Source of the DNA: a virus
Lineage: Duplodnaviria > Caudoviricetes
IMG/VR virus record: IMGVR_UViG_3300031879_000014
Span: 1 to 29,327 of that record
Strand: one strand, 5' to 3'
Length of the DNA stretch: 29,327 nucleotides
Part shown: piece by piece, positions 2,204-29,061 of the stretch
Layout of the letters: each line of letters begins with the position of its first letter
Numbering within the stretch: position 1 is the stretch's first letter
Position numbers and translations under genes: made by a program
The notes under the pieces: generated by a model
What the model was told of the DNA's origin: nothing
The model's input: the letters and a program-made list of their open reading frames with translations, nothing else
Database searches by the model: none

Positions 2204-3942
2204 TAGCTCACCGTCTGCAATTCATCGCCCATTGTATAGACACGACAAAATGTCCAAAAAGCTGTTCCATGTGTAACTGTGGAATTGACTGTCAACTGTA
2301 GCGCGACTTCATTAATCCCACTTGGTACAAGCCAATCCATTGTTCGTAACATTGTCCAACCAGCCGCCCCAACAGGATCAATTACATGACCGAAATCATA
2401 TGGACCCGCAACCGAACCACCGTTCAAATAAGTATATCCTTCTAGAATAAATCCTGGTGTACCACTTGGAGTTCCAGAAAGAACGTTCTCGTATTGCACT
2501 ACAGCGCAAATAGTCAAATGCTCACCAGGAGTGACATAGCATCGATTTGAAAGAAATCCTTCGCCATGATCATCACAGTCAATTCGAACTGATCCAGCAT
2601 CAGGCGCATATGGCGTATCATAAGTAACATCTGCAACCCGAATCCATTGGCCACGAGTAGGTACCCACCCTTGTAAACTATGACCAAAGTAACCGTTAGT
2701 AATACGATTAGGATCGGTCACAGGTTGTGATGCATAATCAGGATTGTAACTAATTGGATCATAATCAAATGCACCTTCGATTTTTAAATCCAATTTAACC
2801 AATCCTGCCGGGACTCCTGCTGACCCGCCAGAGCCTTGTTTCCCGCCACCTTGCGACGAATCTTGTTCTGTGTAAGTGATTCCAATGATGCGATGCCAAC
2901 CTTCAATTGTCCCAACCCAAGGATAATTTGTAGCTGAAACCCAAATGCTATCTCCAAGACCAAAACTCCCCAATGGCGCGGAAGGATGGTTAGGGTCGAT
3001 CAAAATCTCTTTGAAACTGTTAGGAATATTGCGACGAGTCAACTTGCGATGTGCCCATGCTGCTGCACGCTCTGTCGAATCGATCTGAGCGTTCTCTTCC
3101 ATAACGGTACGCCGATAGCGAGTAGGATCGGCATTAGTAACTTCGGCTGAGTAAACCTGTCCCGGTAGCCAACCACGAATGATCACATCTGAAACAGGTT
3201 GAATCTCACGTTCGTCGGCTTGCTTCGCCTGAATTACATTCTCGCCCAATCGAAATGAAAGATAGTTCTGCTGATATCCACCGCGAGGATACCCAAGATG
3301 AAGTTTCTTGGTGAAGACAGTTCGATCACTGTTCCATTCACCCTCTTCAATCATGTCGAAAGGAATATCACGGGCAAGTCCAGCCATAACATCTTGGCAA
3401 TCGTTAAAGTCTACTGATCGATAAAAGACCGCAAAGAAATCGAAATTAAGAACGCTGCCGTCAAAGCTATAGCCAGGAAGCATCTGCGTCCCACTGCTGG
3501 CGGGATAAACATCGACCTCAAGGTTGGCATTGCTGAACGATGATAAATGCGCCCAAATTCTCTGCACAATCTCAAATGGATCGACCGCAATTGGATTGAA
3601 ATTGATAAGAAGAGGAATGCCTTTAGCATATCCAATGATTCCGGTTGTCGTGATTTTATTGTCTCCCGTGGTGGGATCAACTGTCTGGTCAGTGACAATC
3701 CCAACTGCAAAAACTTTTCTTGCGCCGTCTATCTCGATTTCGGCAATAACTACCTGACCCCAAGTCTGCCAATTGATTCCATAACTCGACGCAAAAAACT
3801 CGCCTTGCGGGATAACAAATTCCATTGAACTTGGAGCAGATAGATTGATAGCAATTTGTGGGTCTTTGACAACCAAGTCACGAGAAAGAATTACATCAGT
3901 GTTGGCTTGCAAAACTGTGAAGCGCATACGGTCTGTTATCAT
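2203..3942 (-). CDS. Minor tail/baseplate hub (Tal-like) protein with C-terminal carbohydrate-binding-like domain, 579 aa
   Basis: Second gene after the tape measure. GSFGLGDSIWV...HRIIGI resembles the hub fold; C-terminal PNRITNGYF..LQGW resembles the start of a CBM4/9-like jelly roll. Confidence 0.7.
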   Translation of the reverse strand: MITDRMRFTVLQANTDVILSRDLVVKDPQIAINLSAPSSMEFVIPQGEFFASSYGINWQTWGQVVIAEIEIDGARKVFAVGIVTDQTVDPTTGDNKITTTGIIGYAKGIPLLINFNPIAVDPFEIVQRIWAHLSSFSNANLEVDVYPASSGTQMLPGYSFDGSVLNFDFFAVFYRSVDFNDCQDVMAGLARDIPFDMIEEGEWNSDRTVFTKKLHLGYPRGGYQQNYLSFRLGENVIQAKQADEREIQPVSDVIIRGWLPGQVYSAEVTNADPTRYRRTVMEENAQIDSTERAAAWAHRKLTRRNIPNSFKEILIDPNHPSAPLGSFGLGDSIWVSATNYPWVGTIEGWHRIIGITYTEQDSSQGGGKQGSGGSAGVPAGLVKLDLKIEGAFDYDPISYNPDYASQPVTDPNRITNGYFGHSLQGWVPTRGQWIRVADVTYDTPYAPDAGSVRIDCDDHGEGFLSNRCYVTPGEHLTICAVVQYENVLSGTPSGTPGFILEGYTYLNGGSVAGPYDFGHVIDPVGAAGWTMLRTMDWLVPSGINEVALQLTVNSTVTHGTAFWTFCRVYTMGDELQTVS

Positions 3943-3943
3943 A

Positions 3944-4858
3944 TCAACCTACTATCTGATATGCGTCACGGAAAAGTAAAACTGCATCAGTAGCAGATGT
4001 CATTGAGGCAGCCGTAAATAAAACCTCTAAATCTGCATCATGGCCAAAACGTAACCGATCAAGATATGGCGTATCGCCAGATAGTGAGGTTGTAAGATTC
4101 AACCCGGTAGAAGAGACACACCGTCGTGGCCCCCAAGGATAAGAATTAAGTTCAACAATTTCACCGGCAGCTAAAGTATGGTCAACTGTAATTGTTAACG
4201 GAGTCGATTGTATCACGCCATTAAGATATAAACCTGTGAAAGTAAATGAAGGATTAGTGCATGGGCCTACTACTAAAATTCGGAACCACGACGGTCCATC
4301 GCCCTGAGTACCATTAATAACGACATCAGGAATTGCCTGGGTCATAGCAATTCCGGTTTCTTTAACAGAATAGCCAAATGCATCAGAACGTCGAAACTCT
4401 GCTACGCACTGAATCGCCTCAGTGTAGTCTGTCTTTTTAGCATAGGTGAATTGTCCTGGCCGACCATAGATTGCACGGGTGATGCCATCCGTACCACAGC
4501 AATACAACGGCTCTAATTGACCCCATTGATTTCTGATATTATCAGAACGCCATACCTTTTGAAAATCAGCAACCGTTGGCATCTCATCCCAAAAGTTAGG
4601 AATGTAATCTTCATAGGGATGCAATAGTCGATTGATAAGTACATTAAAAGTTATCTCAATTGTGGTCGGTTTATGAGAATCCCAGCCAAATCGAGTTTCA
4701 TCAGAGCGAGTGACCTGATAATCCTGAGCGTTGATGTCATACGGTTTGATATCAAATGTCTCAACCCGAACTGTCGTTCCTTTACCGAATACCATATTCC
4801 CAATTTGGTACTGTCCTGAAATCAGGTTATAGATAACACCTGGAATGCCCCCGGTCAT
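3944..4858 (-). CDS. Distal tail protein (Dit-like), 304 aa
   Basis: Immediately follows the tape measure with an ATGA overlap. Size and motifs (RAIYGRPGQF, GPCTNP) fit actinophage Dit-type minor tail proteins. Confidence 0.7.
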   Translation of the reverse strand: MTGGIPGVIYNLISGQYQIGNMVFGKGTTVRVETFDIKPYDINAQDYQVTRSDETRFGWDSHKPTTIEITFNVLINRLLHPYEDYIPNFWDEMPTVADFQKVWRSDNIRNQWGQLEPLYCCGTDGITRAIYGRPGQFTYAKKTDYTEAIQCVAEFRRSDAFGYSVKETGIAMTQAIPDVVINGTQGDGPSWFRILVVGPCTNPSFTFTGLYLNGVIQSTPLTITVDHTLAAGEIVELNSYPWGPRRCVSSTGLNLTTSLSGDTPYLDRLRFGHDADLEVLFTAASMTSATDAVLLFRDAYQIVG

Positions 4859-16037: not shown

Positions 16038-17255
16038 TTAAACGAGGAATCCACCACCGCGAGTGTATTGCGTTGGAATGCTGTAACTCCCCGAAGCTTT
16101 GATTTGCATGATCGCAGCCCCGCCACGCTGGCGGATTCCGGTTCCAAATGACCTGGCATAGAAACCGTCCACCAACGGATAGCGTTGGTTGTTCCCTGCG
16201 ATAACACGCAAACCCTGCATGGCGGGATTCGAATGCTGCCGCATTCCGACTGGATTTGTCAGGTTGAACAGACCACCGTAGGCGACTCCCAACAGATAGC
16301 CCGCTGGAATGTAGTCGTCTTCGATGAGATGCCAGAAACCGTAGGAGCCGATCACAGGCAAACCGGATAGAATCTCAGCCGGTTGGTTTCCAAGCAAACC
16401 TTCCGCGTTCGGCAGAATCATCGGTGGCTGACTTGGGCTTGGAATGAAGTCGTAGCCCGCTGTCACACCGTTGTTGTTGACGATACCTCTACGGAAGGTA
16501 CGTATCACATCGGATTCGGCCTTGTTACACAGAAGTACGAAACTAGTTCCGTACTGTGGTGCGTAACCGTGTTCGGCAATCAACTGAAGTAGATCTTCGA
16601 CATCGGATGAGTCAATGACCGAGTTCGCAGAAATCACGTAGTGATTGTGTGTGGAAGCGAAGGTATTCGTTTTGAAAGGTGGTGGTGCAACACCATCGGC
16701 ATTGTAGAGCGGATAGACGTTGTACGCCTGATTGCGAATGTTCGCTTTGCGAGTTCTGTTGTCGAACAACGCTTCCATGATCTTACGGAACATGAGTCGC
16801 TTGTCGGCCCACAGAACTGCATTGTGAATCGCTTCGACCTGACGTGCGTCCGCATCGGCAAGGAACATCCATGTGTAGGCGTTTCGCTTGTCGTAGTGAC
16901 GCAGATCGTAGCCCATTTGGAACATTTCGATGGGCAACCCGGCACCGCGCGGCACACCGAGTTCTGATGCCTCTTCGAAAGTCAGTTCACCGATTTGAAC
17001 CACAGGTTCGACCGGAACCGTAACCGGATAGGTAAGAATTCCGATTAGATTGTCCATCACTTCGTTGTAAATAGCGATGGATTCGGCGAACTGATCCCAT
17101 AATGCGTTCAGGTCTACACCGTCAGCAGTTACGGTTACCAGATCGCCTTGAGTGAGCATACCCTCTTGGCGAAGTGGTTGCGTGCCACCAAAGATCGGAC
17201 CAACGGGAATGCCGTCAATCGTCAGCAATCCGTTTTCTTGTGCCAACATTGGCAT
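16038..17255 (-). CDS. Major capsid protein, 405 aa
   Basis: Size, position after scaffold and decoration genes, FEEASELGVP E-loop-like motif, C-terminal GTGIRQRGGAAIM strand; followed by a hairpin. Confidence 0.85.
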   Translation of the reverse strand: MPMLAQENGLLTIDGIPVGPIFGGTQPLRQEGMLTQGDLVTVTADGVDLNALWDQFAESIAIYNEVMDNLIGILTYPVTVPVEPVVQIGELTFEEASELGVPRGAGLPIEMFQMGYDLRHYDKRNAYTWMFLADADARQVEAIHNAVLWADKRLMFRKIMEALFDNRTRKANIRNQAYNVYPLYNADGVAPPPFKTNTFASTHNHYVISANSVIDSSDVEDLLQLIAEHGYAPQYGTSFVLLCNKAESDVIRTFRRGIVNNNGVTAGYDFIPSPSQPPMILPNAEGLLGNQPAEILSGLPVIGSYGFWHLIEDDYIPAGYLLGVAYGGLFNLTNPVGMRQHSNPAMQGLRVIAGNNQRYPLVDGFYARSFGTGIRQRGGAAIMQIKASGSYSIPTQYTRGGGFLV

Positions 17256-17855: not shown

Positions 17856-18614
17856 TTACGAGGTTCTGCCATGTGCGATCACCGGGAATTTCTTCATCAG
17901 ATCGGCCCGCTTGGACTGTTTCTGCTCGTTGCCGGTGGGAGGCGCGGGGGGCTTGCCCGATCCCCGCTGTGGCTGCTGGGTCCGAGTGTCTTTAGCCCCA
18001 CCTGACTTGAGAAGCCAGGGACTCGACGCCGCGATTCTCTTGACCGCCCCCTCCATGCCGGTCACCGTCGCCTCACCACCGTCAAGGTTCACATCGATTT
18101 CAATTTCGTCTTCGTTCAACTCCGACAAGGCTTGCCGAATCGAATTCCACTGGAAATCGGATTGTGAAAGAAAAGCGTTGATCAGAGCCGTGTTGCGAAT
18201 GACTCGATCCATCTTCTGAATGGTTTGGTTCGCCGTGTCCAGATCGGTTTGCAGTTGCTCTTCTCTGGTCTGGGTCTTTCGGGCGTCTTCCTGTTGCTTC
18301 TGGACATAGCCGTCGCGCTCGGTCGTGACTTTGCTGAGATCGCCTTGGAGCTTCTCAACCTGCTTGAGAAGTTGGCTCAAAGCGTTTGGGTCAGCTTGCA
18401 ATTGGGCTACAGGATCAGGTTTCTGCTCTTCCTGCGGAGTTTGCTGCTGATCGACGCTCTGTTGAAGCGACTGTTGCGCAGCCTGACCTTCGGCGGTTAC
18501 CGGAGGCGTTATGTCGGTCGTGGTGGTACCACCGAAGATCGGCCACGCCTTGAGGGCCTGATTGTAAAGCGATCCCAGGGAATTATGGGAATTGTTGGTA
18601 TTCAACGTCGGCAT
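17856..18614 (-). CDS. Capsid scaffolding protein
   Basis: Gln/Glu-rich coiled coil, PWLLK motif then Gly/Pro tail and terminal helix. ATG 18614 (GAGG upstream) preferred over 18680, which overlaps the MuF-like gene. Confidence 0.8.
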   Translation of the reverse strand: MPTLNTNNSHNSLGSLYNQALKAWPIFGGTTTTDITPPVTAEGQAAQQSLQQSVDQQQTPQEEQKPDPVAQLQADPNALSQLLKQVEKLQGDLSKVTTERDGYVQKQQEDARKTQTREEQLQTDLDTANQTIQKMDRVIRNTALINAFLSQSDFQWNSIRQALSELNEDEIEIDVNLDGGEATVTGMEGAVKRIAASSPWLLKSGGAKDTRTQQPQRGSGKPPAPPTGNEQKQSKRADLMKKFPVIAHGRTS

Positions 18615-18660: not shown

Positions 18661-19581
18661 TCAGGCGGCTTTGCTTGCATTTTGATCTATCCAATCCCTA
18701 TACTGTCCTGCTGTCAAGTGCGCCAGGAACACGTCTGGACTTTCGATGTGGGGCGCGACGAAGCAACGGCACTGCGGATGAGGCTTCGGTGGAACGTTAT
18801 CCACATCAAAAATCTGTCCATTTAATTGTGTGCAGACTTCTTTCGGATCGTTGACATGAACCGCTGAAGTGTACCAACGCATCCCTGTAACCCACGGGCG
18901 ATCTTGTGCCATCGTGATGGCCGTGGCGTGGAAAGCATTATTGAGTTCCGTTCGTCCCAAACGAAGCGCGGCGTAACTTGCACCACCCGATACGTTGGGG
19001 TTGATTGATGATTTAACTTGTTTCGCGATATCTTGAGCACTGTCGCCTCGCAAAATAGAACTGTTAATGACCTGATTTACCCATCCACTAGCTAATGCTT
19101 GAGAACGGTAAACTCGTGCCGATAACGGTTGCTGGGATTGCGTAACGCGAGAGATTGCGTGCGCGACCCCTAAAGCCGCACTTTGTCTTTGACTCGTGAT
19201 GAAAGAATTCAAATCAACTGTGGTTAAAGCTTCTGTCAGATATTTCATATCAGTTGCGTTCAAAGCGTCAACGGCTGCGATTGCCTCTTCCCGCTGACCA
19301 CTCCCGATAATCGGGATCAATCTTCGAAATGTAGTTCGCAGAATCGACTTGGCTTCGTTTTGAGCTAATCTGATTTGAGCGGTTCGAACGCCAGAAGACC
19401 ACGTTGTCTTATGACTTAAATCGGTAATGGCTTGTTCGGCATCGTTTGACGCCGCGGTTAAAACGTCTCTGATCAACGCTTCGTTTTTGACTTGCTTCGC
19501 AAGAAATGCTCCCAGCCAACGCCGGTACAACGTTGACGGCGGCTCAATCGCAGCGGCTTGGGCGGGAGTGGGGGCGGTCAT
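18661..19581 (-). CDS. MuF/SPP1 gp7-like minor head protein
   Basis: LRLGRTELNNA...W...CTQLNG...PHPQCRC signature. Start ATG 19581 gives an ATGA overlap with the JAB gene (ORF track start 19680 is probably too long). Confidence 0.85.
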   Translation of the reverse strand: MTAPTPAQAAAIEPPSTLYRRWLGAFLAKQVKNEALIRDVLTAASNDAEQAITDLSHKTTWSSGVRTAQIRLAQNEAKSILRTTFRRLIPIIGSGQREEAIAAVDALNATDMKYLTEALTTVDLNSFITSQRQSAALGVAHAISRVTQSQQPLSARVYRSQALASGWVNQVINSSILRGDSAQDIAKQVKSSINPNVSGGASYAALRLGRTELNNAFHATAITMAQDRPWVTGMRWYTSAVHVNDPKEVCTQLNGQIFDVDNVPPKPHPQCRCFVAPHIESPDVFLAHLTAGQYRDWIDQNASKAA

Positions 19582-20030
19582 ATTAGCGACCACTCTATCA
19601 CTTCGTGCCTGGTGGCGATCCAATAGCGCCATCTCAGAGCAGGATTCGGCCACCCCGCCAGATCGCGAGGGGTCGGCCACGGCACGTTGTTGGGATGCGT
19701 GTGGAAGATTCCGAGAACCTTGTCTTCTCGTTCCTTATAGATAGCACGAAGAGCAGAGTCAAAATCCTCTTGCGACATCAAAAAATTATGTGTCGGTTCA
19801 TGGTGGATATTTTCAACATAGATAACTTCTTGCTCTTCAATGGTGATTAATCCACATCTTTCATTTCGATTCGCCAAACACTGTGAAATCAATTCGTGTT
19901 GTACGCTCTCAAAGAGAAGTATGTCGGGATGCCAAATTCTTTCCGCTTCCCGATCCGTTTTAATCAACTGATTGCAGTTGGAAGGATGGGCAGGATTGTT
20001 AAAATCGGTGTCTTGGAATGGATAAGGCAT
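19578..20030 (-). CDS. JAB/MPN+ (JAMM) Zn-metalloprotease, 150 aa
   Basis: N-terminal catalytic Glu (NERCGLI) plus HTHPNNVPWPTPRD = H-x-H-x7-(S/T)-x2-D JAMM motif. Confidence 0.9.
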   Translation of the reverse strand: MPYPFQDTDFNNPAHPSNCNQLIKTDREAERIWHPDILLFESVQHELISQCLANRNERCGLITIEEQEVIYVENIHHEPTHNFLMSQEDFDSALRAIYKEREDKVLGIFHTHPNNVPWPTPRDLAGWPNPALRWRYWIATRHEVIEWSLI

Positions 20031-20036
20031 CAGATA

Positions 20037-20654
20037 TTATTTCCTAGATGCTCTGCGCCTCTGTCTTCGTGGTTTTGATTGAGCCGTTTTTTGTCCTGCG
20101 ATAGCAGACATTCGTCTATCATATTTTTTGATACCGACCACACTTTTTTGAACAGGAACCTTGTGCTTTCCTCTGCGAACGATAACAGTAGGCCCAACAC
20201 CGCGCGATGTCCCAAGACGGAATTGCGCTCCCTTATAGGGAACTCTTGTTTTGGCGACAGTGCTAACTTCGACATGAGATCGGAAAGCAGAAAGAGCCTT
20301 GCCGCGTCGGGTGCCTTTGGGGAAGACATGTCCGACTGTTTTGTCAACAACTCTATCGAGTTTTGTTTTCTTACTGATGGATTCGATTCGCACATATTGA
20401 CCTGTCACCACCCTTTTACTGCTGCCAGGAATCCTTGTTCCGGCGTTATATCCCACCGTCGCGCTCCGCTTGTTGATCCGCGCATACGGGATAAAATTCG
20501 CTCTAAGTCCTCCAAGCCCTTCTGGACGTGGGGCTTGCGGAACGCGAGCCGAAACCTTGGCAATGCGCCGACCGCGACGAGCCACAGCAGAAGCCAACTG
20601 CGCCTTGCGGAGCGCGGCGACTCTTGCCGGTGTCATCACATGTTGGCGCGTCAC
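20037..20654 (-). CDS. Highly basic protein, leader-family member (MTPARVAALRKAQLASAVARR), 205 aa
   Basis: GTGA overlap with the upstream gene; shared N-terminal motif; Arg/Lys-rich. Confidence 0.85.
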   Translation of the reverse strand: MTRQHVMTPARVAALRKAQLASAVARRGRRIAKVSARVPQAPRPEGLGGLRANFIPYARINKRSATVGYNAGTRIPGSSKRVVTGQYVRIESISKKTKLDRVVDKTVGHVFPKGTRRGKALSAFRSHVEVSTVAKTRVPYKGAQFRLGTSRGVGPTVIVRRGKHKVPVQKSVVGIKKYDRRMSAIAGQKTAQSKPRRQRRRASRK

Positions 20655-21670
20655 TTCAACGTCGTCCCATGCATACGCAAACCTTTACGAATCCGGCGTT
20701 CTTTACGGAATTCCCTGCGCGCCCTCTTGTTCAAATTCAGCTTCGGTTTGACAGTTCCACCCGTGTATTGCGGGCGACCTCGGAAATAACCGAGTGCGGC
20801 TTGACGATGACCGTAAGAAACCTTCTTGCCTTTGGATTCAACTGATTTCGTATAGGCTGCGGTTCGCCGCAATGCTTCAGCTTCGGAAATCGACTTGTTG
20901 TATCCTTTGAGATTTTGGCCTTTAACCTTCCCGCCACCGAAGTGTTTGGGCATAAGACTTCTCGATGGAACAGTTCGCTTCGTTTTTCCTGGCTTACCGA
21001 ACGGACCTGTGTGCAATCGGCCTGGCGTTGGATGCCCGATTGAGGCGTGATACATTCCGGTGTCGCGTGCCGGTAACAGAATCTTCCGCTTGCCTTTCAT
21101 TCTCAACGCAGCGCCGGTATAGGCTTCCGGCGTCTTCGGATAATTGAACCGCGCCATCGTTTTCATTTCGCCTTGAGATGGCTTGTACGGTTTCAATCCG
21201 GCTTGCGGAGTGGTTTTACGGCCCAGAATATGAGACGGCTTGAGCGGCTTGTGAACATACGTGATCGTTGAATGCGAACCGAGCGGACCCTGTTTCTTTC
21301 CCGAATACTGAACCTGATATCCACCACTAGTTCGTCCGAGAACCTTTCCTTTCGGGGTCACATTCATGTGAGTAATACGGCCATGTGTCAACGAACGTGG
21401 ACGGGAGCCGGTGAGATTTCCCGTCAACGGTCCCACAGGGCCGTGCCTGGTTCTGGTCAATGTCGAACCGGAAAGTTTGTGCCGCTGATATCCGGCAGCA
21501 CCGACAAAACCTACCGCCCCAACAACCCCCGCCCCAATCGCAGCACGTTTGATTCGTCTTTTGGTAGTCGGAGTGGGATGAAATTTGCGACGTTTGGCCG
21601 CTGAAATAAGGGAAGCTTTGTGAAGTGCTGCCCTGCGACTTGCTGTGAAAACTCCATATCGCCTCGCCAC
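20651..21670 (-). CDS. Highly basic protein, leader-family member (FTASRRAALHKASLISAAKRR) with Gly/Ala hydrophobic segment, 339 aa
   Basis: GTG start overlapping the upstream TAG; about 8 acidic residues in 339 by my count. Confidence 0.85.
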   Translation of the reverse strand: MARRYGVFTASRRAALHKASLISAAKRRKFHPTPTTKRRIKRAAIGAGVVGAVGFVGAAGYQRHKLSGSTLTRTRHGPVGPLTGNLTGSRPRSLTHGRITHMNVTPKGKVLGRTSGGYQVQYSGKKQGPLGSHSTITYVHKPLKPSHILGRKTTPQAGLKPYKPSQGEMKTMARFNYPKTPEAYTGAALRMKGKRKILLPARDTGMYHASIGHPTPGRLHTGPFGKPGKTKRTVPSRSLMPKHFGGGKVKGQNLKGYNKSISEAEALRRTAAYTKSVESKGKKVSYGHRQAALGYFRGRPQYTGGTVKPKLNLNKRARREFRKERRIRKGLRMHGTTLK

Positions 21671-22146
21671 TATTTCACTCGCCTTATATAATTACGGGAA
21701 TTTGGCCGTTTCCCTTTTAAATTCGGATTTGGATTCTTGATAAGAGTCAAACGATCTTTACGTTGTGTATAGGCAGTGTGATAGAACTTATCTGCGTCGG
21801 AATGAACTTTAATTCCGCTCAACCCTCGTGCGCCGGAATGTGCCGAAGGATGCATAGACATCGATGTCTGTCTGACATGAGCTTGTTTTATTTTGTAAGG
21901 TACATACGTCCGTTGCCCGACAGCGTTAACCGTTGCCCCCAAAACCACTGATCCGACCAGAGCGCCACCGGCAATTCCCAAAGCCCTTCGTCTCATTTGT
22001 CTTTGAGTGGTTGCGTTTTGAACATAACGAGTCGCAGGATTTCTGCTGCGTCTACGTCCACGGCGTTTTGCAGCAGAAGCTAACTGCGCTCTACGTAACG
22101 CTGCACGTCTGGCGGGAGTAAAAGAACCGTAACGTCGGGCCATCAT
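21670..22146 (-). CDS. Highly basic protein, leader-family member with hydrophobic segment, 158 aa
   Basis: MARRYGSFTPARRAALRRAQLASAAKRRGRRR; ATGA overlap; 3 Asp, no Glu. Confidence 0.85.
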   Translation of the reverse strand: MMARRYGSFTPARRAALRRAQLASAAKRRGRRRSRNPATRYVQNATTQRQMRRRALGIAGGALVGSVVLGATVNAVGQRTYVPYKIKQAHVRQTSMSMHPSAHSGARGLSGIKVHSDADKFYHTAYTQRKDRLTLIKNPNPNLKGKRPNSRNYIRRVK

Positions 22147-22769
22147 AGACCCCGTATAGTCTTGCGAACCGATCTTTTCAAACCGCGAGTCTGAATTCTA
22201 GCCGCCCGATCTGTTTTCCATTTTCGTGTCTTATATTTCCTGTAAGATTGTCTTGGTGTTACTTCATCCATCTTCTTAGCCAAGCTGCGTGTCTTTACAC
22301 CAGATATGACACTCGAATGATGATAACCAGCTTTATAAATTCTTCTCTTGGTTCTAGCTTCTACTCCAAATAAAGTCGGGCCACCTTTATCCCATACTTC
22401 ATCTGGTAGTGGTCTACTGATATGACCGCGAACAGTGACTCTCTTTGAAAAATGCCCAGGATCAACGTATAGTTTGCCTCTTCTACCGGCTTGATTAGCT
22501 CTTGCATTAACTTTTCTGGCAGACTTCATCATACGATTCAGTTCGCTGCCAGTTGAATGCGTCTGAGCCGAGAAATACGATCCCGAAGCATAATGCCGTG
22601 CCGCTAAAACGCCGACCGCTGCACCAGTTCCCACCGCGCCATACTTAACGATTTTCCTTTGACGCGGAGTTAATCGTCTACGCCCACGTCTCTTCGCCGC
22701 AGAGGCTAATTGCGCCCTACGTAAAGCCGCTCGCCTCGCGGGAGTGAAACTCCCATAGCGTCGGGCCAT
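22143..22769 (-). CDS. Highly basic protein, leader-family member with hydrophobic segment, 208 aa
   Basis: First 32 aa identical to the neighbouring gene. Confidence 0.85.
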   Translation of the reverse strand: MARRYGSFTPARRAALRRAQLASAAKRRGRRRLTPRQRKIVKYGAVGTGAAVGVLAARHYASGSYFSAQTHSTGSELNRMMKSARKVNARANQAGRRGKLYVDPGHFSKRVTVRGHISRPLPDEVWDKGGPTLFGVEARTKRRIYKAGYHHSSVISGVKTRSLAKKMDEVTPRQSYRKYKTRKWKTDRAARIQTRGLKRSVRKTIRGL

Positions 22770-22775
22770 TTCAAT

Positions 22776-23003
22776 TTAATAGCCAGGCTTCCCTTTGACT
22801 TTCATCGCCGGGGGAGCGCCACCGGGAATCGGACGAGGATTTGTCCAGTTACGTGGATTCTGCGCTTTGATCTCATTCGGAATCGGCTGACCGGGAAGCA
22901 CGGCTTTGCCGCTCTTCACGATAGCGTTTTTCGGCAACCCCGCCACGCGAGCCGAAGCGTGACCCTGAATCATCTTCGGTTTGCCGGAAGTTCCTCTAGC
23001 CAT
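22776..23003 (-). CDS. Small basic Pro/Lys-rich protein, 75 aa
   Basis: Strong SD AGGAG 7 nt upstream; one acidic residue. Confidence 0.8.
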   Translation of the reverse strand: MARGTSGKPKMIQGHASARVAGLPKNAIVKSGKAVLPGQPIPNEIKAQNPRNWTNPRPIPGGAPPAMKVKGKPGY

Positions 23004-23019
23004 TTCAATCTCCTAACTA

Positions 23020-23439
23020 TTAGAGCTTATGCCTTTTCTGAATTCTCATAGCCTGATTTTGATGCATCATCGCTGACTTGGCTAAACGTCTGGAAACCGG
23101 ATGAGTGCTGGGAAGGAATCTAGACGCTTTCCTAGCCGTCTTGGCTTGTTGGTTGTGCTTATACATTCGGTCATAAGCGGTAGCATGAGAGTAAGCGCCG
23201 ACTGCCGCTGCTGCGCCCAAACCTACCGCAGCGTATTTCAAACCCTTTTTTACTTTGCTTCCTTTTTGGAAATCACGAGATTTGACTTGAAAACTGGCTT
23301 TGGCATAGCCTGTCCGTTGACCAATAGAACGTCTCAACGTTTGTGGAACTGTGCCATGCCGTCTGCGTTTCGCAGCGGAAGCCAGTTGCGCTTTCCGTAA
23401 CGCGGCGCGTCTCGCGGGAGTCAAAGTATAAGTAGCCAT
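23020..23439 (-). CDS. Highly basic protein, leader-family member (LTPARRAALRKAQLASAAKRR) with hydrophobic segment, 139 aa
   Basis: TAATG overlap with the upstream gene; shared motif; 2 acidic residues. Confidence 0.85.
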   Translation of the reverse strand: MATYTLTPARRAALRKAQLASAAKRRRHGTVPQTLRRSIGQRTGYAKASFQVKSRDFQKGSKVKKGLKYAAVGLGAAAAVGAYSHATAYDRMYKHNQQAKTARKASRFLPSTHPVSRRLAKSAMMHQNQAMRIQKRHKL

Positions 23440-23690
23440 TATGAGAATCTCTTTCTGGTTCCTTTAGCGGTCGGCCCGTGTTTGTAAATCGGCAGCCGTT
23501 GATACGCTGGCGAATGCCCAAGCGTTTTCGTAATCGCTGAATGCATTCCAGCCCTATGTGCCATCGTATGTGCCCACTTGGCTTTCAGTTTGGGATTCGC
23601 AAAGAAATAACGCATCTGCTTCTTGGACACGAAGCCAAGCGGCATCTTCAAACCGCCCTTGCGTTTCTTGCCTCTGCCACGCTTTCCCAT
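23439..23690 (-). CDS. Small basic protein, 83 aa
   Basis: No Asp/Glu; FVSKKQMRYFFANP..W motif; starts 3 nt after the upstream stop. Confidence 0.8.
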   Translation of the reverse strand: MGKRGRGKKRKGGLKMPLGFVSKKQMRYFFANPKLKAKWAHTMAHRAGMHSAITKTLGHSPAYQRLPIYKHGPTAKGTRKRFS

Positions 23691-23693
23691 GAG

Positions 23694-23813
23694 CTACTTT
23701 TTCCTGGCGACCTTTTTCATCGTTCCTTTGGCGGTCTTAGTCGAAGATTTCTTGCGTCCACCACCTTTCGCAAACGGAGCGGCACGCTTGCCTTTGAAAT
23801 TCTTGAGCGCCAC
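23694..23813 (-). CDS. Small Lys-rich protein, 39 aa (MALKNFKGKRAAPFAKGGGRKKSSTKTAKGTMKKVARKK); below the ORF-track cutoff
   Basis: GTG preceded by AAGGAGA; alternative in-frame ATG at 23840 overlaps the previous stop; no acidic residues. Confidence 0.75.
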   Translation of the reverse strand: MALKNFKGKRAAPFAKGGGRKKSSTKTAKGTMKKVARKK

Positions 23814-23836
23814 AACAATATCTCCTTGCGAATTGA

Positions 23837-23950
23837 TCATCTGATTTTTAGACCTGGCGTGATGCGCTTGATTTTGAATCCACCTTTGGTGGGAATGATT
23901 CGTGTTGACGCGACGATCTTGTTGAATGACCTCGTGCTGAACTTAGCCAT
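23837..23950 (-). CDS. Small basic protein, 37 aa (MAKFSTRSFNKIVASTRIIPTKGGFKIKRITPGLKIR); below the ORF-track cutoff
   Basis: Fills the gap after the portal; same composition as its neighbours; weak SD. Confidence 0.6.
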   Translation of the reverse strand: MAKFSTRSFNKIVASTRIIPTKGGFKIKRITPGLKIR

Positions 23951-23970: not shown

Positions 23971-25632
23971 TCAGCCCAAAGGAACCGTCTGTTTGCCGAA
24001 TCCGCCTGGCGTGTTGCCGTTTGCTCCCGGCGCGGGAACGTTGCCCTGCGGCGGGGCGACACCGGCAGCCTGGTCGAACGCAGACAGGTTCGATCCGCCC
24101 GCAGCACCAGCGGCGAACGGGTCCATCGCCGTCGCGGCAGAGGACGCCTGATCGGTCAGCAGGGCCACGATGTCATCGTCGGTCAGTGCGTTGCCCTGAT
24201 CGTCAGTCGTCGGATACTTCCAGCCCAGTTCCCTCAACTTCGCAATCGCCATCTTCGTCAGAATCAGATTAGACGTTTGCAACAAAAGCGTTTCTTGAAT
24301 CTCAGCGTTTCTGTCCACCGGCATCGGATCATCGAAAACACAGACAACCGACATCTGACTCATGGTTTCGATACTGCCGAAAGTTTCGCTTTCGTAAGCC
24401 GGAAGCCACATCGTCGTGATATCGTGGAACATCTGATCCAGAATCGTAACGTATTCCAATTCCTTCTCAGCGTTCGCTGCGATCAACGGCATCAGTTCCA
24501 TTTTCATTGCGATACCGGATTGAACTGCCGTCACATCGACGCGACCGATAGCAAGCGCGGGCACTCCTGCCGCTTCAGACAATCCCTTATCGCTGATATA
24601 ATCCATGTGATTCTGATATGGACTCATATCAGTCACACCGCTTACACGTTGAAAAGTTTGATCCTGCCCAACTTCAATGATTTGCATTGGGCCGATATTC
24701 CAATCAGTGACTTGCCCGGTATTCGGATCAACTGGTGGCGCAGCCGTTGTCATATACATGCCCAAGCCCTGAAAGACAATCGTTGCGTCTTCATCTGTCA
24801 GGGATTGGTTGATGCCGTACATCAACGTTTCAAGACCGGCCAACTGACTGATGCCCCACGATGAATTCTGCGGCGGCATGTTGCGCCACTTGTATATCGG
24901 CAACTGAGTGATCGACGGCGGAAGCGGGGTTTCCGGTTCGACCGGCCCACCGGAAACCGATTCCATTTCGGATGAATCTAAAACGCGATCATCCCATTTA
25001 CCGATTTCCCAAAACGTCACTTCCTGCGTGATCGTTCCTGTCGGCTGCCCAGTGTCATCTAATTCCTTACGGAAAGTAGTTCGTTTGCAAACCTGCTTGT
25101 TTGGGTCACGCCAATCTTTGACTCGCTCAGCAACGTGATAGCCGATTGTATTCTGCTCTTCGTCCTCAATCGTAAAAACTTGGCGTGGATCGACTTCAGC
25201 AATGCATACGCGATTACCGGCTTCTTTATTAGGGTTAGCGTACAACATAAACGCGGAATCACCGCGAACCAATCCCCAACGCTTATTCGATTCGAATAGA
25301 GTCTTGAACGCTTCACGCTTAAAGAAAGCTTTCCACCAGTCGTCTAAAGCTTGCTGAGTCCCGGCGTCACCTTCGCCCTCAACCAAGTAATCAACATTGA
25401 TGCCAAGAAATCGATTCGTCGCTTCGATCAATTTACGACCTGACGGCATCAGCAACGGATGCGACTCATCGCCCCTGATGGTGATCTTCAGTTGCCACGT
25501 TGAGTTGATATACAGATTCTCGTACAAGTCATAACACTGGACGCGCAACTTATCGTGCAATTCAACAACGTTATCATCGCCGGTCTGAATAAAATCCCTG
25601 GCGGCGTCATATTGCTTCGGGTTGTAGACCAT
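23971..25632 (-). CDS. Portal protein, 553 aa
   Basis: Directly after terminase; WGLVRGD, WGISQL, AQSG-like (VQSGIAM) and VVCVFDDPMPVD motifs of SPP1 gp6-like portals; SD GAGG. Confidence 0.9.
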   Translation of the reverse strand: MVYNPKQYDAARDFIQTGDDNVVELHDKLRVQCYDLYENLYINSTWQLKITIRGDESHPLLMPSGRKLIEATNRFLGINVDYLVEGEGDAGTQQALDDWWKAFFKREAFKTLFESNKRWGLVRGDSAFMLYANPNKEAGNRVCIAEVDPRQVFTIEDEEQNTIGYHVAERVKDWRDPNKQVCKRTTFRKELDDTGQPTGTITQEVTFWEIGKWDDRVLDSSEMESVSGGPVEPETPLPPSITQLPIYKWRNMPPQNSSWGISQLAGLETLMYGINQSLTDEDATIVFQGLGMYMTTAAPPVDPNTGQVTDWNIGPMQIIEVGQDQTFQRVSGVTDMSPYQNHMDYISDKGLSEAAGVPALAIGRVDVTAVQSGIAMKMELMPLIAANAEKELEYVTILDQMFHDITTMWLPAYESETFGSIETMSQMSVVCVFDDPMPVDRNAEIQETLLLQTSNLILTKMAIAKLRELGWKYPTTDDQGNALTDDDIVALLTDQASSAATAMDPFAAGAAGGSNLSAFDQAAGVAPPQGNVPAPGANGNTPGGFGKQTVPLG

Positions 25633-28137: not shown

Positions 28138-29061
28138 CTATCCTGCTGTTTTTCTAATATTAGCAAGCTTTGCTTCAGTTATTTCTTCTGGTTCTGTCAA
28201 ATACGCTGTGAATGTGCCGTCTTTTCTTTTAACGATCCTGACAAACCAGGGAGCGTTGTCAACACAGTCCACTCCTGCTGCACGCGCGGCGAATCGTCGT
28301 GACTTCGCTTTCCTGATACGATCTTTGGTGTCTTTAATGGATTGCTTACGATCTTCGATATCTTCTGTTGTTTGGCCATCTTCGTTTGCCTCGCCTGTCT
28401 TACTCGTGGTTCCATTTTCGATACTAACCACTTCAACGTCAATAATAGAAGCAGATCGAAAAGCTTCCCTTGTACTCGTTTCGATAGAAGATTCAAAAAT
28501 CGCTTCATAAGGTTTGTCCGCATTTCCAAGCATCAAGACTTCGGGAGTCTTACCGATCACACGTTCTGCAATCCATGTCGCTGCTTTGATTCTGTCGCCC
28601 GGTTCAACAAAATCAGAGTCAGCAAGTTGAAACATGATCTCAACTGCTCGTGGAGCTTTCCTCCGCAAGTAGTCATTGATCCTTCGACCAAGTTCTCTAC
28701 TGAACTTGCTTCGAAATTTTTCAGCCAACGTGTTTACACTGACTTTTGTTCCATCATCGTTCAAAACGTAAGAACCAAAAACTTCTTCATCGCTTAACTC
28801 AGCGACTTCGAAGTATCCGTGAACAAACTTATGAGCGCGATCGAGATTCCTTTCACTGACAATCCTTCGCTCAGCGTATCGTTCACGTCCTTTTTTATTC
28901 CAACATTCCTTACAAATGTGATAAAGCCTATCACGATTCGTTGGATGAGCATGGAATTCACTTCGGTTTTTAACTACCTGACATTCCTTACACAGCTTTC
29001 CATCGGAATCATCAAACTCAACGATTCCATCATCCGCAACTATGTTTTGAGTTACTGTCAT
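28138..29061 (-). CDS. Putative terminase small subunit with N-terminal C4 Zn ribbon, 307 aa
   Basis: CKEC...CKEC motif; helical AVEIMFQLA...DRIKAATWIAERVIGK segment resembles TerS oligomerisation helices; upstream of terL. Confidence 0.5.
   Translation of the reverse strand: MTVTQNIVADDGIVEFDDSDGKLCKECQVVKNRSEFHAHPTNRDRLYHICKECWNKKGRERYAERRIVSERNLDRAHKFVHGYFEVAELSDEEVFGSYVLNDDGTKVSVNTLAEKFRSKFSRELGRRINDYLRRKAPRAVEIMFQLADSDFVEPGDRIKAATWIAERVIGKTPEVLMLGNADKPYEAIFESSIETSTREAFRSASIIDVEVVSIENGTTSKTGEANEDGQTTEDIEDRKQSIKDTKDRIRKAKSRRFAARAAGVDCVDNAPWFVRIVKRKDGTFTAYLTEPEEITEAKLANIRKTAG

Follow-up and report, generated by a model that had tools for sequence, protein, structure and literature searches.

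A 29,327-nucleotide stretch of viral DNA, IMG/VR record IMGVR_UViG_3300031879_000014 (~42% complete; the whole stretch is referred to as the window), contains five genes between those for the portal and the head assembly proteins whose strongly basic products share an N-terminal leader of 20 residues. By capsid and portal similarity, the window phage is a relative of mycobacteriophage Patience. From these analyses it appears, with a chance somewhat better than even, that the leader is an uncleaved docking helix which loads basic internal proteins into the assembling head. A reading of the sequence alone had proposed a modular array of virion proteins, each composed of a tag and a cargo. This proposal is supported by the reported presence of Patience counterparts in particles, by clustering in head modules, by fast turnover of the cargo, and by exchange of the tag.

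The leader and the five proteins carrying it

The leader core, TPARRAALRKAQLASAAKRR and variants, was found exactly five times in the record by a six-frame scan, always on the minus strand and starting inside the first ten residues of an open reading frame (ORF). When the entire record was searched with a profile, the same five genes emerged (E 1.7e-16 to 9.8e-14), as the sequence-only reading had listed them. All five proteins have a pI of ~12, a Lys plus Arg content of 22-26% and net charges between +30 and +67, while nine further head and tail proteins of the window that were compared are near neutral or acidic. In four of the five, the leader is followed by an uncharged segment rich in Gly, Ala and Val. 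The cargo had been described as unrelated, which holds for its sequence, no BLAST match being obtained between any pair, but not for its strongly basic character. No Pfam domain was detected in the five proteins, and judged by sequence no enzyme appears recognisable among them. A match of gene 2 to an ADP-ribosyltransferase (ART) in NCBIfam (E 0.013, 15 bits versus a cut-off of 250) was not accepted, and the ESM Atlas provided no usable match for gene 5 (best 0.79) or for residues 1-65 of gene 2.

The first 32 residues specified by genes 2 and 3 are identical, yet 19 of the 32 codons differ, and over a 24-codon leader the ten gene pairs show 9-17 synonymous codon differences. Because residues are identical while codons differ synonymously, the leader is neither a DNA-level repeat, which the divergence between the copies rules out, nor a chance similarity; it is maintained by selection at the protein level.

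For gene 5, AlphaFold predicts residues 9-35 to be helical, with predicted local distance difference test (pLDDT) values of 89 and 79 across residues 11-30. In 143 unique leaders, T/S1, R/Q4, A7, L8, A11, Q12, S15, A16 and R19 are 86-100% conserved (Arg at position 19 in 98%), counts that rest on profile-selected matches and are biased toward the consensus. On a helical wheel, these positions cluster together on one side. Positions 3, 5, 9, 13 and 20 vary, chiefly between Lys and Arg, and 8 of the 20 positions are occupied by Lys or Arg. The leader had not been recognised as a named family, and it stays without one: when 70 leaders were compared with Pfam at E 0.1, none matched a DNA-binding family and only single weak matches to Ribosomal_S21 and Malate_DH appeared. 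A comparison with PDB sequences gave no meaningful match. A twin-arginine signal peptide was also considered and dropped; the Arg pair is not fixed (R/Q at position 4, R/K at position 5) and a second basic patch lies downstream.

Occurrence of the leader, cargo turnover and tag exchange

With a profile of 70 leader sequences (E <= 0.01, 8000 candidates scored), the leader was detected in at least 974 database proteins. Among the best 120 of these it begins within 20 residues of the start in 119, and no precomputed Pfam domain is recorded for any of them. A check proposed earlier was whether matches to a leader profile cluster in head modules. All 18 viral loci found with the leader alone hold Patience-type head genes; copies of the window phage and of cultured phages are included in this number. 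Metagenomes yielded at least 34 loci, and among those listed 16 of the 17 with a length of at least 4.6 kb hold Patience-type head genes, the remaining 17 being short and containing mostly tandem leader genes. In bacterial and archaeal genomes, 100 stretches were matched by pattern and none was confirmed. A tblastn search with a 34-residue leader against 50,697 phage records returned nothing and missed even Patience, which makes it uninformative. From one to 12 leader genes are present per locus: six in Patience (gp11, gp13, gp14, gp15, gp17 and gp18), four in DrLupo, and two plus an unannotated one in Thumb. Four proteins (P0140, P0141, P0142 and P0186) contain two leader copies each.

The cargo, as far as sequence tells, is nearly always polybasic and of low complexity, usually with a Gly/Ala/Val segment, rather than a collection of diverse enzymes. 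In all of the 120 best matches its net charge is at least +0.1 per residue, and 82 of them possess the hydrophobic segment. The typical order is leader, basic linker, Gly/Ala/Val-rich uncharged segment, and basic low-complexity sequence. In 51 of 88 proteins the leader has a hydrophobic 15-mer (Kyte-Doolittle >= 1.4) after it, compared with a mean of 9.5 and a maximum of 17 for shuffled sequences; about one third of the leader proteins lack the segment. Grouping of 282 leader proteins by cargo resulted in 135 groups, 98 of them singletons, and the family of gene 4 cargo comprises 12 members. One close relative, whose gene 5 cargo is 95% identical, has a gene of 148 aa (amino acids) that starts with the same 28 residues as genes 2 and 3 but shows only 22-30% identity beyond. 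Cargo thus seems to turn over quickly between close relatives.

Enzyme-like cargo is rare. A SLOG (YAcAr) domain scored above the Pfam cut-off in two of 144 leader proteins, and one of the 144 gave a sub-threshold Pfam match to Tox-ART-HYD1. An ART-like YHxT domain was detected by motif search in 13 of the 282 proteins (~5%, some of them near-duplicates). A profile of ten such domains matched structures of the ART fold only (Tpt1, PARP10; 9 of 9 rows), albeit weakly (best E 0.022), and a single-sequence fold of one ART-like cargo had low confidence (pLDDT 39). Two ART-like genes in the array of the close relative L058 are missing from the window; gains and losses between close relatives are seen in the leader-tagged YHxT family in general. 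Phage Chill (cluster D; L037:2145-4609) encodes a leader-variant protein of 565 aa upstream of its terminase; the gene that comes directly after it is annotated as an ADP-ribosyltransferase.

Gene 5, the conserved last member of the array, is the orthologue of Patience gp18 (49% identity). Its orthologues begin with the helix or a variant in 15 of 23 cases and with an unrelated motif, (N)PxQxRDxxG[RK][FW], in the other eight. A tree of the gene 5 core only, with tags labelled by hand and three of 26 rows omitted as partial, implies three tag changes, one of them demanded by well-supported branches, and the approximately unbiased (AU) test (p 0.096) does not reject a single swap. Since one orthologous gene carries either the helix or RDxxG[RK][FW], the tag appears to be swappable, with at least one swap indicated by the sequences. 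The helix-bearing protein of L023 and Thumb gp10, of RDxxG type, have a common Gly/Ala linker and core. The head regions of 13 annotated phages with this capsid type were compared as a panel: RDxxG-type arrays are found in Apeppi, Madi and P3.1 and helix variants in Send513, Chill and Onyinye. A near-neutral ADP-ribosyltransferase of 1340 aa in Onyinye also begins with the RDxxG motif, and several RDxxG-type proteins have a hydrophobic segment comparable to the Gly/Ala/Val segment. Madi and Apeppi have a common AWGNALGG prefix added to the RDxxG tag.

PHROG 12708 labels gene 5 as a head maturation protease. No support for this label was found: the invariant columns of the family are P, R, T, G, R, R, E, R and G, with no His, Cys or Asp, and comparisons with Pfam and PDB revealed no protease match. 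The predicted model has low confidence (predicted template modelling score, pTM, 0.31) and consists of long beta-meanders, for which a VIA search gave generic beta matches only (best Z 5.4). The orthologue gp18 remains in mature Patience particles, according to the available data of PMC4324244.

Gene order in the window is the same as in Patience: terminase, portal, basic array, JAB, MuF, scaffold, and minor and major capsid protein, the latter being ~80% identical to those of cluster U phages. The array had been placed between portal and the MuF and scaffold genes, and this is where it lies, with the portal gene upstream and JAB, MuF and scaffold genes following (Table 1). Coupling of all five genes was assumed as well; it applies directly to the last four, while genes 1 and 2 are split by a leaderless ORF. 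Altogether, four leaderless basic ORFs are present in the array stretch, three of them between portal and leader gene 1. Small basic genes resembling the ORF of PHROG 1375 also come after the portal gene in several relatives, and the ORF starting at 23950 resembles, by eye, the Patience virion protein gp111. Scans of the module against Pfam, PHROGs and NCBIfam detected JAB, MuF and Patience-like PHROGs only; neither a T4-type prohead protease nor family-level similarity to T4 internal proteins was found in this ~42% complete record.

Other features of the region were recorded as well. The MuF ORF as called (18661-19680, minus strand) runs to a GTG within the JAB gene, and a more probable start is the ATG at 19581, which overlaps the JAB stop. 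A terminase small subunit-like gene (28138-29061, minus strand; PHROG 10899) has an N-terminal zinc segment like endonuclease VII or HNH. In several relatives, large genes resembling those for tail fibres or surface proteins are inserted in or beside the basic array (L006:4650-7248, L087:1627-4428, L059:10651-16097 and L033:3182-5059).

Table 1. Positions of leader genes, neighbouring head genes and related loci
Feature	Position	Strand	Remarks
Leader gene 1, 139 aa, net charge +30	23020..23439	-	leader helix 23362-23421; Gly/Ala/Val segment 23173-23235
Leader gene 2, 208 aa, net charge +45	22143..22769	-	leader 22686-22745; Gly/Ala/Val segment at residues 43-57
Leader gene 3, 158 aa, net charge +33	21670..22146	-	leader 22060-22119; Gly/Ala/Val segment 21913-21984
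Leader gene 4, 339 aa, GTG start, net charge +67	20651..21670	-	leader 21587-21646; Gly/Ala/Val segment 21485-21544
Leader gene 5, 205 aa, GTG start, net charge +46	20037..20654	-	leader 20574-20633; conserved last array gene
Leaderless basic ORF, 75 aa, inside array	22776..23003	-	separates leader genes 1 and 2
Leaderless basic ORF, 83 aa, PHROG 1375 family	23439..23690	-	between portal and leader gene 1
Two tiny leaderless basic ORFs, 37 aa (from 23950) and 39 aa (from 23813)	23694..23950	-	
Portal, Pfam SPP1_portal	23971..25632	-	61% identity to Patience gp8; upstream boundary of array
JAB-domain metalloprotease, intact HxH...D	19578..20030	-	candidate PIFGG↓T enzyme
PIFGG↓T site, scaffold N-terminus	18525..18542	-	same as processed N-terminus of Patience gp21
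PIFGG↓T site, major capsid protein N-terminus	17181..17198	-	Patience capsid model starts at this Thr
Major capsid protein, Patience-like	16038..17255	-	PDB 8GIU match, E 1.6e-225
RDxxG[RK][FW]-headed basic arrays (Gordonia, Nocardia phages)	L032:4913-7183; L033:5267-8749; L034:3454-5429; L041:11801-13254		
RDxxG[RK][FW]-headed ADP-ribosyltransferase, Onyinye	L038:2619		
Leader-YAcAr/SLOG fusions	L056:1729-2451; L059:5009-5701		Pfam E 7e-17 and 3e-13
Leader-tagged ART-like genes (Tpt1/PARP-type YHxT)	L058:2738-3193, 3798-4391; L006:140-865; L066:1198-1812; L086:3-611		PHROG 6170-related

Virion data from Patience and competing explanations

Mass spectrometry of CsCl-purified Patience particles detected all six leader proteins. 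Stringent spectra numbered 30 for gp11, 153 for gp13, 257 for gp14, 694 for gp15, 124 for gp17 and 233 for gp18, with 572 for the capsid protein, three for the scaffold and none for JAB as reference; such counts do not yield copy numbers (PMC4324244, Table S1). Compared with late lysate, the six are enriched in particles 4.9-9.0-fold, the tape measure protein 5.9-fold and the inner protein gp4 8.2-fold (same table). The shell of the 2.4 A Patience model consists of capsid protein, minor capsid protein and gp4, gp15 not being mentioned in the available part of that report, and an unmodelled small helix lies on the capsid underside near the local three-fold (PMC11965321). In an earlier account, gp15 was guessed to be an outer accessory, either a minor capsid or a decoration protein (PMC7150772).

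In the mechanism favoured here, basic proteins co-translated late in infection would bind to the inner face of the assembling head. Docking would occur via the small-residue face of the leader (T1, R/Q4, A7, L8, A11, Q12, S15, A16, R19), its opposite Lys/Arg face pointing to the DNA. The likeliest docking partner would be the capsid protein, at a site close to the local three-folds where the unassigned small helix of Patience lies, because different proteins with one common helix would be expected to average to such a density. The leader would stay uncut and the proteins would be sealed in, with their basic tails amid the DNA, where they may neutralise or space the packed genome in an accessory role. 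An occasional enzyme (ADP-ribosyltransferase-like or SLOG) may also be packaged by means of the leader and thereby be delivered to the host. A further-reading version, tentative and rather doubtful as a whole, equates the leader with the small helix under the Patience three-folds: it would be an uncleaved, portable capsid-lining peptide, with up to a dozen proteins competing for one repeated site, and one of two exchangeable address codes, the other being RDxxG[RK][FW]. It would thereby let a long-tailed actinophage fill its head with a rapidly changing protamine-like core and recruit enzymes by N-terminal fusion. Adjutor-type capsids may show a weaker inner helix, since Chill of cluster D carries a leader-variant protein.

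Several observations weigh against docking to the capsid, in addition to the consensus bias of the conservation counts. Leaderless basic gp111 is present in Patience particles (33 spectra, 6.6-fold enriched), and leaderless gp16 (seven spectra) and gp10 (one) were likewise detected (PMC4324244). Because of gp111, the leader is not strictly needed for presence in particles. The small helix could be another peptide, for example an N-terminal piece of the capsid protein or part of gp4, gp24 or gp79. Moreover, the virion data are from Patience and not from the window phage, and particle mass spectrometry cannot tell inside from outside. One of the longer metagenome loci is the exception: L089 comes from an unrelated phage, in which a basic protein encoded just downstream of the terminase has the motif close to its C-terminus, so a capsid-specific site fits less well. 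The protein in question has 169 aa, and two more basic genes, one DUF5872-like, are located around that terminase (L089:5267-8105). Finally, the head regions of MrMiyagi (70.0 kb), Shrew (68.0 kb), Wollypog and Anakin contain no tagged array and at most one basic gene. Since these four are among the 13 phages sharing this capsid type, such a genome can be packed without the array; no tracking of array size with genome length was seen across the 13.

It is considered unlikely, although it deserves some weight, that the leader is a nucleic-acid-binding, arginine-rich helix, the proteins entering or staying in heads by DNA binding and charge and the helix having spread as a DNA-binding module rather than an address. 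The many Lys and Arg residues of the leader, the uniformly basic cargo of the 120 best matches, gp111 in virions and the C-terminal motif in L089 would all be explained in this way. However, one face of the helix is invariant in Ala, Ser, Leu and Gln, with Arg nearly fixed at position 19, while the other swaps Lys and Arg freely. In addition, none of the 70 leaders resembles a DNA-binding family of Pfam, and the alternative tag heads the near-neutral Onyinye enzyme. Portal motors translocate bare DNA, so that the procapsid stage is when internal proteins normally get in, which was also counted against DNA binding.

The Gly/Ala/Val segments gave rise to another explanation. The array could specify ejection (pilot) proteins, which the leader loads and whose segment inserts in the host envelope as a DNA conduit or cargo anchor. 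The docking step is compatible with this view and only the main purpose differs. The frequency of the segment far above shuffled sequences, its counterpart in RDxxG-type proteins and the long beta-meanders predicted for gene 5 are in line with it. Conduit parts, on the other hand, would be expected to be conserved, yet cargo groups and gene numbers per locus vary widely as described above, and the segment is missing in about one third of the proteins. Counts in a sample of infected cells at 30 min relative to particles were 0.16-0.57 for leader proteins, following the shell (0.24-0.34) and not the tape measure protein (0.02) or MuF (0.05), a ratio that is unreliable in view of the 0.07 obtained for gp4. 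All considered, ejection is quite improbable as the main purpose.

Removal of the tag by the prohead protease belonged to the T4 analogy drawn earlier; for the leader, the evidence on cleavage leans against it. The N-terminus of Patience scaffold gp21 determined by mass spectrometry is residue 35, after glycine (PMC4324244), and Thr20 is the first residue of the Patience capsid model (PMC11965321). Both residues are the Thr of PIFGG↓T (arrow, cut). An alternative cut of gp23 at residues 82/83, published in 2014 (PMC4324244), disagrees with the later structure (PMC11965321). Processing is reported for gp21, gp23 and gp24, and none is given for gp11-18 in the available part of PMC4324244. A corresponding motif, P[IVLM]xG[GA], was found in the first 80 residues of none of 89 leader proteins. 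Lacking the head cut motif, leader proteins are unlikely to be processed in the T4 manner, and the leader, by its sequence, likely stays uncut.

JAB proteins cut after Gly-Gly, which makes the adjacent JAB the likely PIFGG↓T enzyme; its NCBIfam neighbours are desampylase and Cap3. Hydrophobic-x-Gly motifs were seen by eye across the 13-phage panel, three members of which have the motif without JAB in the module. Co-occurrence with JAB, another proposed check, was observed in all nine of the 13 phages with tagged genes. A role of JAB as di-glycine head-maturation protease was not encountered in the literature searched. The leader could still be a true T4-type propeptide, cut off by JAB after loading. 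The position of JAB directly after the array, its co-occurrence with tagged genes, its absence from mature Patience particles (PMC4324244) and a hydrophobic-x-Gly-Gly within residues 25-90 of 22 of the 89 leader proteins would agree with this. Against it, in addition to the missing motif and the lack of reported gp11-18 processing, the gp17 start was revised from N-terminal peptides, the sample not being stated, and a 32-kDa band was tentatively assigned to full-length gp15 (PMC4324244). MrMiyagi, furthermore, has JAB without a tagged array. Such a propeptide is therefore very unlikely, a shade more so than a main purpose in ejection.

Nearly neutral expansion of short basic paralogues, duplicated together with their translation start and of little function, fits the quick gain and loss between close relatives and the absence from some phages of the same capsid type, but is hardly credible in view of saturated synonymous change with unchanged protein and of the high abundance in Patience virions (PMC4324244).

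Significance and comparison with known systems

The common view of HK97-fold siphoviruses is that the DNA in their heads is nearly bare. A variable basic core loaded by a short tag would, if docking is correct, extend the T4 principle with different chemistry and probably without cleavage. It would explain a dozen orphan virion proteins of the cultured phage Patience, including the highly abundant gp15, as well as the unassigned helix in its 2.4 A capsid map, and a 20-residue tag by which proteins of choice could be loaded into the heads of mycobacteriophages would be of practical use. As virion and structural data exist, these predictions are directly testable on existing phages and deposited maps.

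In HK97-fold phages such as P22 and 80alpha, the scaffold possesses a basic, capsid-binding C-terminal helix. The scaffold C-terminal helix of the window (17856-17900, minus strand), with the conserved pattern xRAxLxxK[FY]P, weakly resembles the leader. Mimicry of the scaffold tail was tried as an explanation and found to be weak, with an hhalign probability of 16.7% and an equally high value in one of 60 column shuffles; the 7-column xRAxL pattern common to both is a lead only.

The counterparts in Patience, gp11-gp18, are the same genes in the same place and were termed virion proteins (PMC4324244). In the available parts of the Patience papers they are treated as unrelated orphans and a shared leader is not mentioned (PMC4324244, PMC7150772, PMC11965321). 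No description of the leader or the RDxxG tag was found in full-text literature, subscription papers and bioRxiv supplements being thinly covered; the available part of bioRxiv 10.1101/2022.09.09.507160 does not mention Patience.

Polyvalent proteins, MuF- or portal-fused effectors and T4 Alt are similar in that head-module ADP-ribosyltransferases are predicted to be packaged and injected (PMC5512222). The proteins described here differ from these effectors in being small, with a single cargo and no MuF or portal fusion, and enzymes make up only ~5% of the cargo, with none in the window (PMC5512222 for comparison). The Madi array, moreover, occurs without MuF annotated in the head module. Adenovirus core proteins V, VII and mu are alike in function only, several basic proteins being packed with the genome, and N-terminal peptides of VI and VII share one inner capsid pocket; virus and fold are unrelated, the peptides are cut by a protease and the gene set is fixed (PMC8011978).

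A close parallel is provided by the T4 internal proteins, in which a conserved N-terminal tag, the capsid targeting sequence, is also found on diverse proteins; these are basic, are held with the packaged DNA and come from a variable gene set, some with anti-host function (PMC3012670). Differences are apparent as well. The window phage is a siphovirus with an SPP1-type portal, and neither a family match nor a T4-type head protease was found. The tag is a 20-residue basic helix that is likely not removed, and two exchangeable tags exist. Tag-driven loading has been shown in T4 (PMC3012670), whereas here it is a proposal. By analogy, the leader system would work like the T4 internal proteins, yet it is not a member of that system.

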